Below, piece by piece: positions 32,542 to 39,589 of a stretch of 64,000 nucleotides of DNA. The notes under the pieces are model-generated. The model saw only the letters and a list, made by a program, of their open reading frames with translations. It was not told the DNA's origin and ran no database searches. This DNA is from a virus (taxonomy: Duplodnaviria > Heunggongvirae > Uroviricota > Caudoviricetes). Position 1 is the stretch's first letter; the number at the start of each line of letters is the position of its first letter. Where the stretch lies: IMG/VR virus record IMGVR_UViG_2737471993_000002; one strand, given 5' to 3'. The position numbers were made by a program, and so were the translations under genes.

Positions 32542-35500
32542 ATGAAGGCACTGATGGTTCGAACTGACTTCTCACTTGGGGAGTCGGCTCTAAAAGCAGA
32601 AAACGCGGTGAAGATTGCCAGAGAAGCTGGCTACACCGCTGTAATTTCAGCAGATAGCATGAATATTGCGAGCGTTATTCCACTACAACGTGCCGCTGGT
32701 GACGACATGGCGGTTATTTGTGGTGTGAAACTAAACATTGTTGATGATCCCACATACGAGCACCGGGCTAAACTTGCTAAAGAATCTATGAGATGTATGG
32801 AATCATTAGAGCGGGGACGTAACTACTCGTTTACCGCTCTAATTAAAAATGAGCAAGGATATCGCGACATCTGCGAACTAATGACGGCGGCCAACACACG
32901 AGAACAGTTCTACTTTGTACCGCGTCTCTCGCTCGAACAGTTGGTTTCTACATATGCCAAAGGCAACATCATCCTGCTTACTTCCGACATCGGTAGCGTG
33001 TTCCAACGCAACGATTTTGCAAAAATCATAAGCACACTGATTACAGCGGGTGGAAAAGACAACTTCTATAGTGTGGTTTATCCGCACCCTACCCCATTCT
33101 ACGACCAGATTAACGTCCGGGCGATGAAAGTCGCCAGCGCATTGAAAATAGAGCCAGTGGCGTTCTATCCCGCTTATTACGAATCGATCGACGATGCAGA
33201 CATTAAAGACATTGCGCACATGGTTACGAACAACATCAAAATCGACCAGCCGCATCGTCTGCGTATCCCCCACCAGCGAGATAACGCCGTCAATGGTCGC
33301 CGCCATCTCCTTGAGGCGCTTAAAGCCTTCTCCGTTCGCATGGATGTGCCGGTAACAGCTGCAATGGCCTCAACAACGCAGGATACCATTATCGATGCCT
33401 GCACATGGCGCTGGCATGAATTGCCGCCAGCACTGCCAAAGATGGCAGACGACGAGCCTGCAACGCTTATGAAACTGGCTGTTGCAGGGCTGCGTAAACG
33501 TCTTACCACAAAAGAGTTTGGCTACACACCACCTGCTTCTGAGAACAGGGTTTATGTTGAGCGGCTAAAGTACGAAATGGACACGCTGACTCGCCTGGGA
33601 TTTTGTGGTTACTTCCTGATGGTACGCGATCTGATGAATCATAGTCGTGAAACTGGCATTCCCGTTGGGCCTGGTCGTGGTTCCTCTGCCGGTTCTCTGG
33701 TGGCGTGGTGCATAGGCATAACCAACGTCGACCCAATCCGTCACGGTCTTCTGTTTGAGCGTTTCATCAACCCTGAGCGTCTCGACTTGCCGGATGCGGA
33801 CTTGGACTTCAGCCAGGCACGTCGCCATGAGGTGATCGAGTATCTGAATGAACGCTACGGCGAAGATTACGTTGCGGGTATTCCGAACTTCACCTACCTG
33901 GGCGCAGCCTCTGCACTACGTGATACCGCTCGTATTTATGGTGTGGAGTCCGCAGATATGGCGGTATCAAAAGAACTGAAGAACGTCGAGGATGATAGCC
34001 TTCCATTGGAAGAGCTGCGCGAACAACTGGCAAGTCTCGACAAATACGCAACAAAATATCCTGATGCATTCAATGCAGCCTGCAAGTTACAAAGCCTTAT
34101 GCGTGGCTTTGGTAGACATGCGGCAGGGATGATCGTAGCAGGTGTTCCTCTGACAGAACGTACACCGGTTGAGCGCCGTGGTGACGCGCGTTGTATCGCA
34201 TTTGACAAGCGTTACTGCGAGGCTATGGGCCTAATTAAGCTGGACGTGCTTGGCCTGGCAACTCTCGATTTGCTCGATAGTGCAAAACGCTACATAAAAG
34301 AGAACACAGGTGAAGATATCAATCTTGATGCCATTTCTCTTGAAGATCGCAAGGTGCTGGATGGTTTTGCTGCTGGGTACACTCAAGGTGTTTTCCAGCT
34401 TGAATCAGGCCCAATGCGCAAGCTGCTTAAAGATTTAGGTGGTGGAATTGAGCCAATGAGCTTTAAAACGGTCGTCGCTACAACTGCGCTCTTCCGGCCG
34501 GGGCCAATTCAATCAGGCATGTTGGATGACTATGTTTCTGTCGCCAAAGGCTTTATGACGCCGGAATCATTACACCCCGTTCTTGATGAACTTACCGCGG
34601 AAACAAATGGCGTGATTCTCTATCAGGAACAGACGATGAACGCGACTCGATTGCTTGCCGGCTTCACAATGGCTGAAGCTGACGCTGTGCGTTCCGCAAT
34701 CGGTAAGAAGAACATGGAAAAAATGAAGAGCATGGGCGAGAAGTTCATCGTTCAGGCTCAAGCTGGCTGGATAGACGTTGAGCTGGAAGATGGCACTACA
34801 CAGCGCATTCACCGTGCGGAACATTTTAAATGCGAAGACGGAACTCTGAAAACTGTCGAAGAGGCACTTGAGCACGGCGCAAAACTACCTATAAACGCAG
34901 TACGCGTTACAGCGTCACATCCAGGGCTATCAGAGATGAAAGCGAAGGAGATCTGGACCGCATTTGAGAAAAACGGAGCCTATCAGTTCAATAAATCACA
35001 CTCCGTTGCTTATTCTTTAATCAGTTATCAGTCTATGTGGCTAAAGACGCACTACCCTGCTGAGTTCTTCGCAGCTGCGCTCACCATTCTGGGCGAGGAT
35101 AAGCATCAGGGGCTGGTGAAGGATGCGCTGACCTATGGCATTCGCGTATTGCCACCAGACGTTAATGTGTCATCTAACCGAATTGAGATCCGCACACTCG
35201 AAGACGGCAGTCAGGCACTGTATGCGCCATTCTCTGCTGTGAAAGGCTGTTCTGAAAATGGTTGTCAGGCAATTATGCGTGCGCGTGAGAAAGTTGGTGG
35301 CAAATTCGAGTCAGTGGCACAATTCGATGAAGCGGTCGAGAAGCGTGCATGTAACAGTCGTGTACGCGAGTCGCTTCATAAAGTAGGGGCTTTTGCGTCA
35401 ATTGAGCCAGGCAGTCTGCCAGCAACTGATCCTGAACGACTGCGCGACCAGGCTGAGCTGATGGGCAATCTCATCATTGACGCTGTTAAAGCATCACGTC

Positions 35501-36060
35501 CGTTCGAAATGAATCCTAAGCGTTCTGCCGAAATCAACGTACTTATGACACGTATGGCGGCTGAAATGGGCTTGGGTGAGGAGTTGATACGCCCGACTAT
35601 TGGTATTAAACCCAAAATCATGATCATTCTGGACAATGCGAACGGCAATGACGCTCGTACCGGCTACTTCATGGAGAACGGATACGACGACTTTAAGGCA
35701 AAACTACTGACAGTTGGAGATCTGCGCATGGGCGATCTTTATGTCACGGGTGTTTGTAAGAAGGTTAAGGACAAAGAGAAAGACTATACCAAAGACGAGA
35801 TAGGCCAGTTCACAGACTTTATGCGGGAAGAAATTAATCTTGTACGACCAACCTACATTTTGACGTGTGGTAGTCGTTCAACCGCACTATTTAACAATAA
35901 GAGTAAACCATCAGATCTGATTGGTCGTAAGGAGTACTTCCCAGAGCTTGATGCAACCGTCTTCTACGGATTTAACCCGAATATCCTGTACTTCCGACCG
36001 GAAGAAGGAGAGCGACTGGAGGCCATTCTGGCTGATATCGCGGAGACAATAAATAAGTAA
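32542..36060 (+). CDS. dnaE: DNA polymerase III alpha-type replicative polymerase (DnaE-like, with PHP domain)
   Basis: 1172 aa; Pol-beta-like palm motifs GPGRGSSAGSLVAWCIGITNVDP and LPDADLDF; N-terminal PHP-like region. Confidence 0.85.
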   Translation: MKALMVRTDFSLGESALKAENAVKIAREAGYTAVISADSMNIASVIPLQRAAGDDMAVICGVKLNIVDDPTYEHRAKLAKESMRCMESLERGRNYSFTALIKNEQGYRDICELMTAANTREQFYFVPRLSLEQLVSTYAKGNIILLTSDIGSVFQRNDFAKIISTLITAGGKDNFYSVVYPHPTPFYDQINVRAMKVASALKIEPVAFYPAYYESIDDADIKDIAHMVTNNIKIDQPHRLRIPHQRDNAVNGRRHLLEALKAFSVRMDVPVTAAMASTTQDTIIDACTWRWHELPPALPKMADDEPATLMKLAVAGLRKRLTTKEFGYTPPASENRVYVERLKYEMDTLTRLGFCGYFLMVRDLMNHSRETGIPVGPGRGSSAGSLVAWCIGITNVDPIRHGLLFERFINPERLDLPDADLDFSQARRHEVIEYLNERYGEDYVAGIPNFTYLGAASALRDTARIYGVESADMAVSKELKNVEDDSLPLEELREQLASLDKYATKYPDAFNAACKLQSLMRGFGRHAAGMIVAGVPLTERTPVERRGDARCIAFDKRYCEAMGLIKLDVLGLATLDLLDSAKRYIKENTGEDINLDAISLEDRKVLDGFAAGYTQGVFQLESGPMRKLLKDLGGGIEPMSFKTVVATTALFRPGPIQSGMLDDYVSVAKGFMTPESLHPVLDELTAETNGVILYQEQTMNATRLLAGFTMAEADAVRSAIGKKNMEKMKSMGEKFIVQAQAGWIDVELEDGTTQRIHRAEHFKCEDGTLKTVEEALEHGAKLPINAVRVTASHPGLSEMKAKEIWTAFEKNGAYQFNKSHSVAYSLISYQSMWLKTHYPAEFFAAALTILGEDKHQGLVKDALTYGIRVLPPDVNVSSNRIEIRTLEDGSQALYAPFSAVKGCSENGCQAIMRAREKVGGKFESVAQFDEAVEKRACNSRVRESLHKVGAFASIEPGSLPATDPERLRDQAELMGNLIIDAVKASRPFEMNPKRSAEINVLMTRMAAEMGLGEELIRPTIGIKPKIMIILDNANGNDARTGYFMENGYDDFKAKLLTVGDLRMGDLYVTGVCKKVKDKEKDYTKDEIGQFTDFMREEINLVRPTYILTCGSRSTALFNNKSKPSDLIGRKEYFPELDATVFYGFNPNILYFRPEEGERLEAILADIAETINK

Positions 36061-36579: not shown

Positions 36580-36908
36580 AGATATTACCTTCTTAATTTT
36601 GTGAGCCACATAGTGCGGCGAGAATTTGATCTGTATAGATTGGGACTTACTTAGGCACTTAAGGAGGAGACTCACGAAGAAGGGAAATCAGAAGATAACA
36701 CTGAACTGAGACTGCTTTACTAAAACTGCTTACATAAGGTCTGTCTTGCAAACCAACGATGCTATTAACGCATACCCCTTCTTTTCATGCAACCTTTATT
36801 TTTCAAAGATAACTAATTTTTGTCACCATTGGTTTAGTAAACGTTAACGAACCAGACGATGCCAGACACCTTTACAGAGAACAGATGCCCGCCAATTGGC
36901 GGGCATCA

Positions 36909-37472
36909 TTATGCGCATTTCGCAATATCTTTGCGGCGTTTAATCAGTTTCTCCGCAATTTGCTCTATTTCGTTGAAATCTTTCGAGACGCTGTTTCGAA
37001 GCGCCAGATTCCATTTACTCAAAGTTCGGGCATTTTGGACAATTTGATCGCCCTCTTTAAGTCGTCCGTTATTCATGAGCCATTCAGCCACATCAGCCCA
37101 ATCCCAGAGAGGAGACTGGCCTTTTATGCGTTGTACAGGGCAAGGGAAGTCGCCGCTTCCGCGCTTACCGTCTTTGAGCAACGCCACCGCCTGGCGAGAC
37201 AGGTCTGTCAGTTCCGCGATATCGCTTAAGCCCACAAGAGCCGAGTCGACGGATTCAACAATTGCACCGATACCGGCTGATTCAATATTGTCGACCGCAG
37301 ATGCGATAGCTGCATCAAGTGATTGTGCTTCGCGGTCAAATTCTACATAGACGGAGTTTCCATATGCGCAAATTAGCGCATCGTCACAGCCGTTTTGGTA
37401 CAGCGCGTCTTCCAGTCCTTCCGTCTCATACGATACGCCTGAGAGCGTCAGAGTGAAGTTATAAAGCGCCAT
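36909..37472 (-). CDS. Two-domain protein with C-terminal AlpA-like HTH (candidate antitoxin/regulator)
   Basis: C-terminal LTDLSRQAVALLKDGKRGSGDFPCPVQRIKGQSPLWDWADVAEWL resembles AlpA-type HTH; sits directly downstream of a small HicA-like ORF on the same strand. Confidence 0.4.
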   Translation of the reverse strand: MALYNFTLTLSGVSYETEGLEDALYQNGCDDALICAYGNSVYVEFDREAQSLDAAIASAVDNIESAGIGAIVESVDSALVGLSDIAELTDLSRQAVALLKDGKRGSGDFPCPVQRIKGQSPLWDWADVAEWLMNNGRLKEGDQIVQNARTLSKWNLALRNSVSKDFNEIEQIAEKLIKRRKDIAKCA

Positions 37473-37532
37473 AGTTTTCCTTTGAAGATAGTTGGACAGT
37501 TTCTGCAAAAGGCGGCTAATGCCGCCTTGAAA

Positions 37533-37757
37533 TCATTTACAACGATCAACCATTCGTTTGATCTGTTTGGCATGGTTTTCGGGATTACCCGGAGTCGACC
37601 ATACGCTCATTTGGTGAGTTTTGTGTTCACCTTCTGGATTACCGCATCGCAGTCTGCAAAAACAATGTGCAGCACCACCAGCTGCTACCCAGATCCAGCC
37701 TTTACTTAATGCATAGTCAATGGCTGCTTGAATATGCTTATTCGGATGTTGCTTCAT
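37533..37757 (-). CDS. Small HicA-like protein (candidate toxin)
   Basis: 74 aa; KGWIWVAAGGAAH and HKTHQMSVWSTP..ENHAKQIKRMV loosely match HicA/YcfA pattern (GW...GSHH ... vP.H). Weak. Confidence 0.3.
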   Translation of the reverse strand: MKQHPNKHIQAAIDYALSKGWIWVAAGGAAHCFCRLRCGNPEGEHKTHQMSVWSTPGNPENHAKQIKRMVDRCK

Positions 37758-37967
37758 TCGCCTCCGATAATAGTATTCTATTCACAGTGTTGACATCTGT
37801 CAACGGCGACTGAATTTCATCCGTTCATGCCACACCCCCATCCATCTCATGTATGTGACCTAAAGATGGTCAGCACAGCTTACCAAAATAAGACAACTAA
37901 TTATCTTCGGTGATCTCAATATTTTCCCCTGAACAAAGTTGACATGACGCCATAAACCCGTTCTCTG

Positions 37968-37980
37968 TTTGATATAATTG
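37968..37980 (+). promoter_or_regulatory. Extended -10 promoter element (TGaTATAAT)
   Basis: Perfect TGnTATAAT ~35 nt upstream of start at 38012; palindromic motif TATAAGTAGGAACCTATTA (37991-38009) lies between. Confidence 0.4.
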
Positions 37981-38011
37981 ATACAGATTTTATAAGTAGG
38001 AACCTATTAGA

Positions 38012-38443
38012 GTGAACACTGATATTTTTTCTAAAATCATGGCCGATCTGGAGTTCGACCGCGACAACCTTGAGGAAGTATGGCGTAAACAGCCACGGCT
38101 TTTAATGGAGTATGGGTCAAAACTAGCGCAGGCAGATCGAGATGTCGCAGAGGCAAAACTTAACCTTGAAGCTGTTGAAGCAAAGCTATACGACACAGAG
38201 CGTAAGAACTTGAGTATGAACGGCATTAAGTTCAACGAGTCTGTACTGGACGCTAAGGTTAAAACAAACCCACAGTATCTGTCTAAACGGCAGAAGTTGG
38301 ATGAAGCACGGCACATCGCAGACATATACAAACATGCTGTCGCCGCCTTTTCGCATCGCCGAGACATGATCGTTCAGGCGTCAAAGATGGCCATCGTTGA
38401 ATTAGAGCGATTAGGCTCTGAACGCTTTATTACTCCCCGTTGA
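38012..38443 (+). CDS. Hypothetical coiled-coil protein
   Basis: 143 aa (GTG start per track; ATG alternative at 38039). Confidence 0.45.
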   Translation: MNTDIFSKIMADLEFDRDNLEEVWRKQPRLLMEYGSKLAQADRDVAEAKLNLEAVEAKLYDTERKNLSMNGIKFNESVLDAKVKTNPQYLSKRQKLDEARHIADIYKHAVAAFSHRRDMIVQASKMAIVELERLGSERFITPR

Positions 38444-38447
38444 TTTT

Positions 38448-38478
38448 TGATAGATAATAAGTAAGTACTGATCTATCA
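38448..38478. promoter_or_regulatory. Palindromic operator-like motif (TGATAGATAATAAGTAAGTACTGATCTATCA)
   Basis: Outer arms TGATAGAT/ATCTATCA enclosing TAAGTA..TACT core; upstream of SSB gene. Confidence 0.45.
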
Positions 38479-38560
38479 TTTAACAGCTCGAAAGAGCCAC
38501 GAATGAACGAAAGCCCAACGCGCATAGCGCCATCGGCCAAATCACAACAAGGAGAAACAC

Positions 38561-39589
38561 ATGTCTAAGACATTACTTGATTTGCTTAACAAAACTCGTG
38601 AAGACATTGCCGCCAAACGTGGCAACAACGTTGATCTGACTCGCTTAAAAGACGGCGTCAACTATATCCGCATCTTCCCGAATAAAGACGACCCAAACGG
38701 TAAGTTCTTCCAGACTTTCGGTATGCACTACGTTAAGTATCAGAACGAGGAAGGTAAAGAAGCAACCAACGCTTATATTTGTGAGCAACATACTCACGGT
38801 CGCGCTTGTCAGCTATGCGAAATGGTTATGGAAGGTCGCGCTCGTCACAAGGGTAACAAAGCAATGGAAGAACGCATCGGTCAAATGCGTGCCACTCCTC
38901 GCTACCTGGTCAACGGCATTCTTTCTGCTCGTGAGGATTTCGCAGATGCTGAGAAATGCCAGTTAATCGAGCTGCCGTCTACTGTATTCGATGATATCTG
39001 CAAAGCAATCACCGAAGACATCGCTGATGATATCGGCAATCCACTGAGCAAAGAGGAAGGCTACGCATTCCTGATTAAACGTACTGGCTCTGGTCGCGAT
39101 ACCAAATATGACGTCTCGCCTAAGCGTAAAGTCTACAAAGGCGATATCGAAGATAAATTCTGGAACACCCAGCATGATCTGATCGCATACGCAAATCAGG
39201 CTGATGAAACTCGTCTTCTGTCGACAGTTCGCACTATGGGTCGTCTGATTGGCATCGCTGCACCAACTGCCGCAGCATCTGCACCAGCAATTTCCTCAAC
39301 CGCGAAAACATCGGCTGCGGCACTACCTGGATTTGGCTCTGTCACTGGTCATACAGAAGGAGCGACGGCTGTAGCAACCGCGCACACACCGGCTTCTGAA
39401 CCAACCAGTCTGGTTGATGAAGAAATCCTCCGTGCCGTTGAAACTGAATTTAAACCAGAGGCAAGTTCCGCTGCCGTTGCCGTATCAGTCAAAGAGTCTG
39501 AAGCAGTCGCAGCGACATCTGTAGCAACCGCATCTGCGACGGAAGATGAAGGTCTGGATGACCTACTGAGAGAGCTGGACTCTCTGTAA
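38561..39589 (+). CDS. Single-stranded DNA-binding protein (T4 gp32-like) with acidic C-terminal tail
   Basis: N-terminal basic region, IRIFPNKDDPNGKFF, zinc-ligand pattern C-x2-H-x4-C-x2-C (CEQHTHGRACQLC), Ala/Ser linker and acidic C-terminus EDEGLDDLLRELDSL. Confidence 0.6.
   Translation: MSKTLLDLLNKTREDIAAKRGNNVDLTRLKDGVNYIRIFPNKDDPNGKFFQTFGMHYVKYQNEEGKEATNAYICEQHTHGRACQLCEMVMEGRARHKGNKAMEERIGQMRATPRYLVNGILSAREDFADAEKCQLIELPSTVFDDICKAITEDIADDIGNPLSKEEGYAFLIKRTGSGRDTKYDVSPKRKVYKGDIEDKFWNTQHDLIAYANQADETRLLSTVRTMGRLIGIAAPTAAASAPAISSTAKTSAAALPGFGSVTGHTEGATAVATAHTPASEPTSLVDEEILRAVETEFKPEASSAAVAVSVKESEAVAATSVATASATEDEGLDDLLRELDSL

Follow-up and report, generated by a model that had tools for sequence, protein, structure and literature searches.

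A putative toxin-antitoxin-like module of SSU5-type phage-plasmids that couples a predicted HicA-type fold to a ferredoxin-like partner

Two adjacent minus-strand genes (hereafter A and B) of an SSU5/pHCM2-type phage-plasmid of E. coli probably make up a toxin-antitoxin (TA)-like module, with A as the putative toxin and B as the putative antitoxin and autorepressor. The pair was studied in a stretch of 64,000 nucleotides (the window), assigned to its element by nucleotide comparison. It displays traits generally associated with type II TA systems, namely small, adjacent and co-oriented genes with conserved synteny that behave as a mobile unit, and a putative toxin gene that decays while the antitoxin gene persists (13 cases). 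The original prediction envisaged a HicAB-like addiction module; synteny, mobility, a promoter palindrome and one-sided decay uphold the TA-like part of that description, but HicAB family membership is unsupported. The likely role of the pair is plasmid addiction, abortive phage defense, or both. It has been catalogued as PDC-M06 and is labeled HicAB in one database record.

A 74-amino-acid ORF followed by one of about 190 amino acids had been predicted on the minus strand, and both are present in the ORF listing. Gene A (37533..37757, minus strand) encodes 74 aa from an ATG start and is preceded by a ribosome-binding site, GGAGG, read off the sequence at 37761..37765 (minus strand) and kept as cGGAGGcgaATG in related enterobacterial loci. 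The longest B ORF comprises 199 aa and begins at a TTG (37508), 24 nt past the A stop codon, whereas initiation at the ATG at 37472 yields 187 aa and a spacer of 60 nt, values in agreement with the size and the spacing of roughly 25-60 nt that were originally described. The ATG is taken as the true start because all homologs begin with MALYNF and both public annotations use it, which places gene B at 36909..37472 (minus strand). Conservation rules out that A and B are chance ORFs.

Upstream of A, a consensus scan matched 11 of 12 positions of a sigma-70 promoter, TTGACA-17 nt-TAGAAT (37775..37803, minus strand), and related loci have the same TTGACA-containing element some 45-55 nt ahead of the A start codon. 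The -35 element is overlapped by a perfect palindrome, GTTGAC-N4-GTCAAC (37789..37804), which is a candidate operator. Straight after the B stop codon, a terminator scan called a terminator-like hairpin, GATGCCCGCC-AATT-GGCGGGCATC (36884..36907, minus strand), with a 10-bp stem that includes 8 GC pairs. Judged from these signals, A and B form a single operon that extends from a near-consensus sigma-70 promoter through a terminator. RNA folding places a further, stable stem-loop, AAGGCGGC-ATTA-GCCGCCTT, in the A-B spacer (37509..37528, minus strand), immediately before the TTG; the terminator scan did not call it. GC-rich hairpins of differing sequence are found directly after the A stop codon in most loci with a spacer of at least 45 nt, and some of these run into T-runs; the structure is kept across many loci and the sequence is not. 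A role as an attenuator or as a stabilizer of the mRNA 3′ end is possible. In the study of strain LF82, A and B were listed as morons that are transcribed in the Cyrano lysogen, with transcript levels over the prophage background of 30x for A and 14x for B, and the spacer hairpin may lower transcription of B in line with these values. An Rfam scan of the operon returned no known RNA family, its sole match being the neighboring cspA thermoregulator.

Dozens of non-mobilizable E. coli plasmids (~110 kb) match the 1.5 kb around the pair at 99.9% identity, and positions 36600-38100 of the window share 99.7% identity with the phage-plasmid Cyrano of strain LF82. Among 5,426 complete E. coli genomes the locus is present in 110, in every case on a plasmid of ~106-115 kb and never on the chromosome, and these occurrences are confined to SSU5-like plasmids. 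The operon is flanked by a csp gene and a divergently transcribed uvsY-like gene, and the wider neighborhood holds dnaE/csp on one side and uvsY-, gp32-, exonuclease- and recA-like genes on the other. SSU5 itself carries the pair at the same place, with protein identities of 57% (A) and 68% (B). Public annotation of the pair is inconsistent between records. In the Cyrano record the proteins are named “HicA toxin protein” and “putative antitoxin HicB,” by annotation only, whereas GenBank/RefSeq plasmid records describe A as a “hypothetical protein” and B as a “DNA-binding protein,” “HTH regulator” or “AlpA family regulator,” and the SSU5 annotation has A as “hypothetical” and B as “AlpA-like regulator.” The Cyrano names claim more than the sequences support, and the RefSeq pairing of a hypothetical protein with an HTH regulator claims less.

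The association of the two genes extends far beyond these plasmids. When A served as the seed for a scan that took a single genome from each species, 64 loci were recovered; in 63 of these, from Enterobacterales to Planctomycetota, the gene that directly follows A in the same orientation encodes a B homolog, and the predicted order of small protein first and DNA-binding partner second is thus borne out. Spacing varies from overlapping genes to ~150 nt, and the genes often overlap or stand a few nucleotides apart. B of Enterobacterales contains all three of the parts described below, whereas in Planctomycetota, Verrucomicrobiota, Nitrospinota, Rhodothermales and Achromatium it is reduced to a ferredoxin-like domain of 80-96 aa. 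Conservation between loci of these distant phyla is limited to A and the ~80-aa N-domain of B, and a third conserved gene, sought in loci with HTH-less B, was not found. As the HTH-less forms conserve nothing else with A, the B N-domain is its constant partner. These short forms lack a domain for binding DNA, so that part of the family does without autoregulation by B. The settings of the pair are diverse. In Pseudoalteromonas it shares an island with an integrase and an IS110 element; in Histophilus it occupies the variable region of a P2-like prophage, beside Phd/YoeB; in Prodigiosinella it is part of a P4-like island and neighbors a RelE-type TA system; and in Providencia the two genes are inserted by themselves into a housekeeping neighborhood. 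These contexts indicate that A and B travel together between a phage-plasmid, P2-like prophages, integrative islands and plain chromosomal sites.

The presence of the palindrome follows that of the HTH. A perfect 6-N4-6 palindrome over the -35 element, 43-55 nt upstream of the A start codon, is found in 43 of 52 loci with an HTH-bearing B but in none of 14 with an HTH-less B, and several other HTH-bearing loci have versions with one mismatch. The half-sites co-vary, being GTTGAC/GTCAAC in 39 loci, GTTTAC/GTAAAC in two (Pasteurellaceae) and GTAGAC/GTCTAC in one (an Alteromonadaceae MAG). In the window, GTTGAC-N4-GTCAAC occurs once, at the A-B promoter. On comparative grounds, the pattern argues strongly that the operon is repressed by its own product B through the palindrome, and we infer the binding itself from it.

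If A were harmful without B, and B harmless alone, which gene would be expected to decay? Thirteen loci have a broken or absent A alongside an intact, full-length B. A is nonsense-mutated in two of these and frameshifted in six; two of the frameshifted loci are from MAGs, in which assembly errors are possible. In two more A has suffered deletions while B is kept, in one case leaving residues 1-35 of A fused to B, and in a further two A is cleanly deleted while the promoter, operator and B remain. The last case is the E. coli plasmid pYLMB53a, in which codons 14-66 of A have been replaced by a 58-bp palindrome and B is intact. Among the loci surveyed there was no clear case of an intact A with a broken B; one ambiguous locus has both genes altered, A being perhaps still functional and B deleted at its N-terminus. 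In six loci A and B have been lost together. The first 12 single-gene losses all fell on A, the smaller gene (12/12, binomial p = 2.9e-7), and this is significant because B is 2.5 times longer than A. Such one-sided decay is the pattern expected if A is harmful in the absence of B and B is harmless alone.

The AF2 model of A, built on the family alignment (pLDDT 88.4), has the order helix-strand-strand-strand-helix, and this is the dsRBD topology that defines HicA. A “weak HicA/YcfA-like pattern” had originally been read in the sequence of A, but this went undetected by every sequence method used, and the resemblance is confined to the predicted fold. None of 85 diverse A relatives matches PF07927 or the HicA NCBIfam models at E<=1, whereas the genuine HicA proteins examined all carry PF07927, and NCBIfam/Pfam scans of A as permissive as E<=10 gave no HicA match. 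No HicA was found in a PDB profile search with the A family, nor in a Foldseek search of the A model against the PDB, which returned nothing significant. Profile-profile comparison had been proposed as a check on HicA similarity; hhalign of the 85-sequence A alignment gave short local matches with probabilities of 17-33%, never above the latter, against small and narrow HicA alignments that were made from PDB and E. coli sequences and whose HicA profile could not even connect one HicA structure with another.

Although non-significant, the best of the partial hhalign matches aligned alpha1-beta1 and the G-x-x-H31 turn of A with alpha1-beta1-GSHH of HicA. H31 is located directly before beta2, within G-x-S/A-H, and is kept in 82 of the 85 relatives. 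In HicA the catalytic His lies in a GSH motif, at the beta1-beta2 turn or where beta2 begins (His24 in B. pseudomallei HicA). The Pro after beta3 is invariant in the A family, its HicA counterpart being “VTVP,” and the conserved residues of A comprise H4, K7, H31, T55, P56 and H62. A second group of residues, nearly invariant throughout, consists of C38, C73 and position 48, the last being occupied by Cys in 70 of 85 sequences and by His in 11. A fourth His or Cys is supplied either by the beta2-beta3 loop or within three residues past C73 in 111 of the 113 sequences that possess the first three ligands, with either location making up for the lack of the other (Fisher p = 5.7e-12). A zinc site is favored over a disulfide because one position alternates between Cys and His only and the fourth ligand is movable; the set is therefore probably a zinc site. 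H31 and the zinc ligands were placed on the structure by secondary-structure register and sequence patterns. The metal-ligand set is missing from five aligned HicA sequences, and to our knowledge canonical HicA proteins in general have no zinc site. The model gives A a HicA-type fold, and an active-site His like that of HicA is possible, but membership of the HicA family is not demonstrable. The narrower proposal that A is specifically a HicA-like RNase is a tentative one, and on balance we lean against it.

The AF2 model of B (pLDDT 91.9) is divided into three parts. Residues 1-76 (37245..37472, minus strand) are predicted to adopt a ferredoxin-like beta-alpha-beta-beta-alpha-beta fold, with the motifs GCDD and F-D/H-R and near-invariant D31 and R47. 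Residues 79-135 (37068..37238, minus strand) form a winged-helix/HTH region with helices at 82-89 and 93-100, a strand at 122-124 and a helix at 125-134. Residues 143-186 (36915..37046, minus strand) comprise two long helices in the model, a helical hairpin that possibly serves dimerization; B homologs of Pasteurellaceae and Neisseria, at 146-154 aa, end at about profile position 142 and do not have it. The AlpA-type HTH originally seen at the C-terminus of B therefore survives in part, in that weak AlpA-type matches are found, but the HTH is central and the helical hairpin follows it. This region matched PHROG excisionase families at 2e-4 and 1e-3 and the PDB AlpA structure 8c3t at E=0.71, and Pfam Phage_AlpA (PF05930) matched 8 of 29 B-family members below its gathering threshold (best E 0.025). 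These matches suggest an AlpA/excisionase relationship of the HTH, with family membership not established. B was considered as an excisionase and rejected, there being no integrase context and the palindrome being located at the pair's own promoter. Like a HicB-type antitoxin, B has both a DNA-binding domain and a palindrome in its own promoter, the binding of one to the other again being deduced. All HicB classes have a partial RNase H fold (beta-beta-beta-alpha-beta), however, and B is not a HicB because its N-domain is predicted to be ferredoxin-like and not of the partial RNase H type.

Pfam and NCBIfam scans with the single proteins and with family alignments assigned neither A nor B to a family, and PDB searches with the sequences and family profiles of both returned chance matches only (RuBisCO small subunit, plant lectins). 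In PHROGs, A belongs to phrog_5923, of unknown function, and B to phrog_2620, “excisionase and transcriptional regulator.” An exhaustive profile search (E<=0.001) recovered 669 relatives of A among 50%-identity cluster representatives, and B had 273 matches. In PADLOC, A matched PDC-M06A with six models (best 1.2e-19) and B matched PDC-M06B (1.3e-32). Since adjacent genes match both component models, the locus belongs to that catalogued pair. PDC systems are unpublished computational candidates (PADLOC-DB v2.0.0), some of which were validated on testing while others failed. The literature search yielded no publication mentioning PDC-M06 and nothing relevant on a zinc-containing HicA-like family.

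How might such a module work? In the mechanism we propose, A is the harmful partner, a zinc-stabilized protein of dsRBD/HicA-type fold that would most likely bind or cleave RNA through H31 in the beta1-beta2 turn together with H4, K7 and H62; by secondary-structure register, these four residues would cluster at the end of the sheet where the catalytic His of HicA sits. The N-terminal ferredoxin-like domain of B would bind and neutralize A. The central HTH of B, probably dimeric through the C-terminal hairpin, would bind GTTGAC-N4-GTCAAC over the -35 element and repress the operon. Should B be depleted, through loss of the element or phage attack, free A would arrest growth. Expression of A from a strong promoter and a strong ribosome-binding site, at about twice the transcript level of B, is unusual and counts against a potent toxin. 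It is also odd for simple stoichiometric sequestration that A is transcribed above B, which leaves room for another mode of neutralization; the excess of A over B transcripts and the invariant Asp, Arg and Cys of the B N-domain possibly reflect a mode beyond sequestration.

Other readings of the pair have to be weighed against this mechanism. That it is a bona fide HicAB system, with A a HicA mRNA interferase and B a HicB antitoxin as annotated in Cyrano, is very unlikely, given that PF07927 and the NCBIfam HicA models match neither A nor 85 diverse relatives, that neither the PDB profile search nor Foldseek found a HicA and hhalign gave 17-33%, that the Cys/His ligands of A are absent from five aligned HicA sequences, and that the N-domain of B is beta-alpha-beta-beta-alpha-beta against the beta-beta-beta-alpha-beta of HicB. 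Could the roles instead be reversed, with B or its ferredoxin-like domain as the toxin and A as the antitoxin? Most type II systems place the more-expressed antitoxin upstream, and here A is both upstream and more transcribed; moreover, nuclease activity occurs among ferredoxin-like proteins, with Cas2 and VapD as examples. However, loci with B only would be lethal if B needed A, and B is intact without a functional A in 13 loci, two of them clean A deletions; with a DNA-binding domain typical of antitoxins in B as well, reversal is extremely improbable.

A non-toxic regulatory pair, in which A is a zinc-binding co-regulator and B an AlpA/excisionase-like factor for replication, recombination or lysogeny genes, would suit the location between dnaE/csp and the uvsY-, gp32-, exonuclease- and recA-like genes, the unchanged position in SSU5 and the resemblance of B to AlpA/excisionase regulators. 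In its small size and its richness in Cys and His, A recalls certain phage zinc-finger regulators, and its high expression agrees with a non-toxic protein. We nevertheless regard this as unlikely, because within 64 kb the palindrome is present solely at the pair's own promoter, the pair travels alone to chromosomal sites, P2-like prophages and islands that do not have the SSU5 backbone, other phyla have HTH-less forms, and repeated loss of A with B and the operator kept is unexpected for co-regulators. Carriage as a moron that primarily provides abortive-infection anti-phage defense (PDC-M06) is another possibility, which differs from an addiction module in role alone. Both proteins match PADLOC candidate defense models, homologs sit beside Phd/YoeB in a P2-like prophage and beside a RelE-type TA system in a P4-like island, the pair is expressed as a moron in a lysogen, and some other PDC candidates have been validated. 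Yet PDC systems are unpublished candidates of which other members failed tests, PDC-M06 is not mentioned in the literature searched, and the confinement of E. coli copies to SSU5-like plasmids in 110 of 5,426 genomes fits addiction equally well; a primarily defensive role is thus somewhat unlikely. A TA-like module with A as the putative toxin remains the preferred reading.

If A is a toxin neutralized by B, the pair represents a TA family carried by SSU5-type phage-plasmids, elements often met with in clinical E. coli, Shigella, Salmonella and Yersinia. Further members occur in prophages and islands of many Proteobacteria, and Planctomycetota, Verrucomicrobiota and Nitrospinota have a minimal form. 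Such a module would be part of the explanation for the persistence of ~110-kb plasmid-prophages, and it may also act as a phage-defense moron. It would further mean that the HicA-type fold has two unrelated kinds of antitoxin partner and is able to accommodate zinc. A more ambitious proposal is that of a phylum-spanning TA/defense family, of about 670 clusters at 50% identity, in which a zinc-binding effector of dsRBD/HicA fold is governed by a ferredoxin-fold control domain unrelated to HicB; for this the arguments are nearly balanced, with doubt slightly ahead. The ferredoxin-like domain would be a new antitoxin fold for a toxin of HicA-type fold. The analysis defines concrete parts, namely a promoter, an operator, candidate catalytic and metal residues, and natural variants with B only.

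Among known systems, PDC-M06 is matched by both proteins at the level of its component models. The AlpA/excisionase-type HTH of the MerR superfamily (PF05930; 8c3t) is approached by residues ~79-135 of B, with weak matches below curated thresholds, and NCBI names some B homologs “AlpA family transcriptional regulator.” However, AlpA is a single-domain protein of ~70 aa, whereas the HTH of B is set between a ferredoxin-like domain and a helical hairpin, and the A-B locus has no integrase or excision context. Another lead is offered by GhoS of the type V system GhoST, an antitoxin built on a small ferredoxin-like fold that acts as an RNase on the toxin mRNA and has no DNA-binding domain. Its likeness to B would lie in the generic ferredoxin-like fold, and the full form of B differs from it in possessing a DNA-binding domain.

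The closest comparison is with HicAB (PF07927; 6hpb, 6g26, 4p78, 5yrz, 1whz). The two differ in that A has no detectable sequence or profile similarity to HicA and carries an additional Cys/His set that is probably a zinc site. They differ likewise in the partner, where the predicted b-a-b-b-a-b N-domain of B replaces the b-b-b-a-b partial RNase H domain of HicB, and an AlpA/excisionase-like DNA-binding domain with a helical hairpin replaces the Xre-HTH or RHH domain. In both systems, nonetheless, a small gene (50-100 aa in HicAB, where it encodes the toxin) comes first, and as far as the model of A indicates, the first protein has the same fold, with a near-invariant His ahead of beta2 and a conserved Pro behind beta3. 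Both also have a palindromic operator in the promoter (a candidate one in the A-B operon) and a partner that consists of a neutralizing N-domain (putatively so in B) with or without a DNA-binding domain. In the classes of Gerdes, Class 1 HicAB has a small HicB that lacks a DNA-binding domain and Class 3 has a HicB with an HTH, and the short and HTH-bearing forms of B parallel these two classes.

Between the putative toxin gene A and the putative antitoxin gene B, the 60-nt spacer of the window carries a stem-loop at 37509-37528 on the minus strand, and GC-rich counterparts unrelated to it in sequence occur in other loci. Most homologous loci with a spacer of at least 45 nt have a GC-rich stem-loop just 3' of the A stop codon (among them L003, L005, L011, L013, L016, L017, L019, L030, L032 and L033), and in some a T-run follows it; no spacer stem-loops were found in loci where A and B overlap. 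From sequence, this recurrence suggests that the element could act as a conserved attenuator, or could stabilize the transcript, between the two genes.

Two loci are notable natural variants with a damaged A gene. In the Escherichia coli plasmid pYLMB53a (L132; NZ_CP073940.1, 1975-2070), codons 14-66 of A are substituted by a perfect palindrome of ~58 bp, CTTAACTTCCAAAGGGTACTCCCGCC-GACATAA-GGCGGGAGTACCCTTTGGAAGTTAAG, for which a MITE-like element and a repair scar are candidate origins. The promoter, the operator, the spacer hairpin and B are all kept. In Pectobacterium versatile (L065, 6001-6675), a natural in-frame deletion has produced a single A'-B open reading frame, in which roughly the first 35 residues of A run straight into the beginning of B.

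In the window, the pair is enclosed by a replication/recombination block on the plus strand (32542-36060 and 38012-39589). A DnaE-type polymerase of 1172 aa, also on the plus strand, lies upstream, and on the opposite side are genes that the annotation of the phage-plasmid Cyrano names as a UvsY-like mediator, a gp32-like SSB, an exonuclease and a RecA-like protein. Immediately 3' of the B terminator, a full-length match to the cspA thermoregulator RNA (Rfam RF01766; 36339-36757, minus strand; 185.7 bits, E 8e-51) spans both the 5'UTR and the gene of a cold-shock protein, named cspG in public annotation. On the phage-plasmid, a CspA-type cold-shock gene is thus accompanied by its regulatory leader.

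What other toxin-antitoxin genes accompany these pairs? In a P2-like prophage of Histophilus somni (L004, 4641-6665) the pair lies no more than 1-2 kb from Phd/YoeB, and in a P4-like island of Prodigiosinella (L069, 5332-8863) it is equally close to a RelE/HTH_3 pair; this is the toxin-antitoxin clustering typical of defence hotspots. For Cyrano (OV696614) of E. coli LF82, the paper on that strain lists as morons (CYRAN_26, 27, 29) a KacT acetyltransferase toxin and its antitoxin, together with a RelE/ParE toxin. Given these further toxin-type morons, and judging from the Cyrano record, the same phage-plasmid element may hold several addiction or defence modules.
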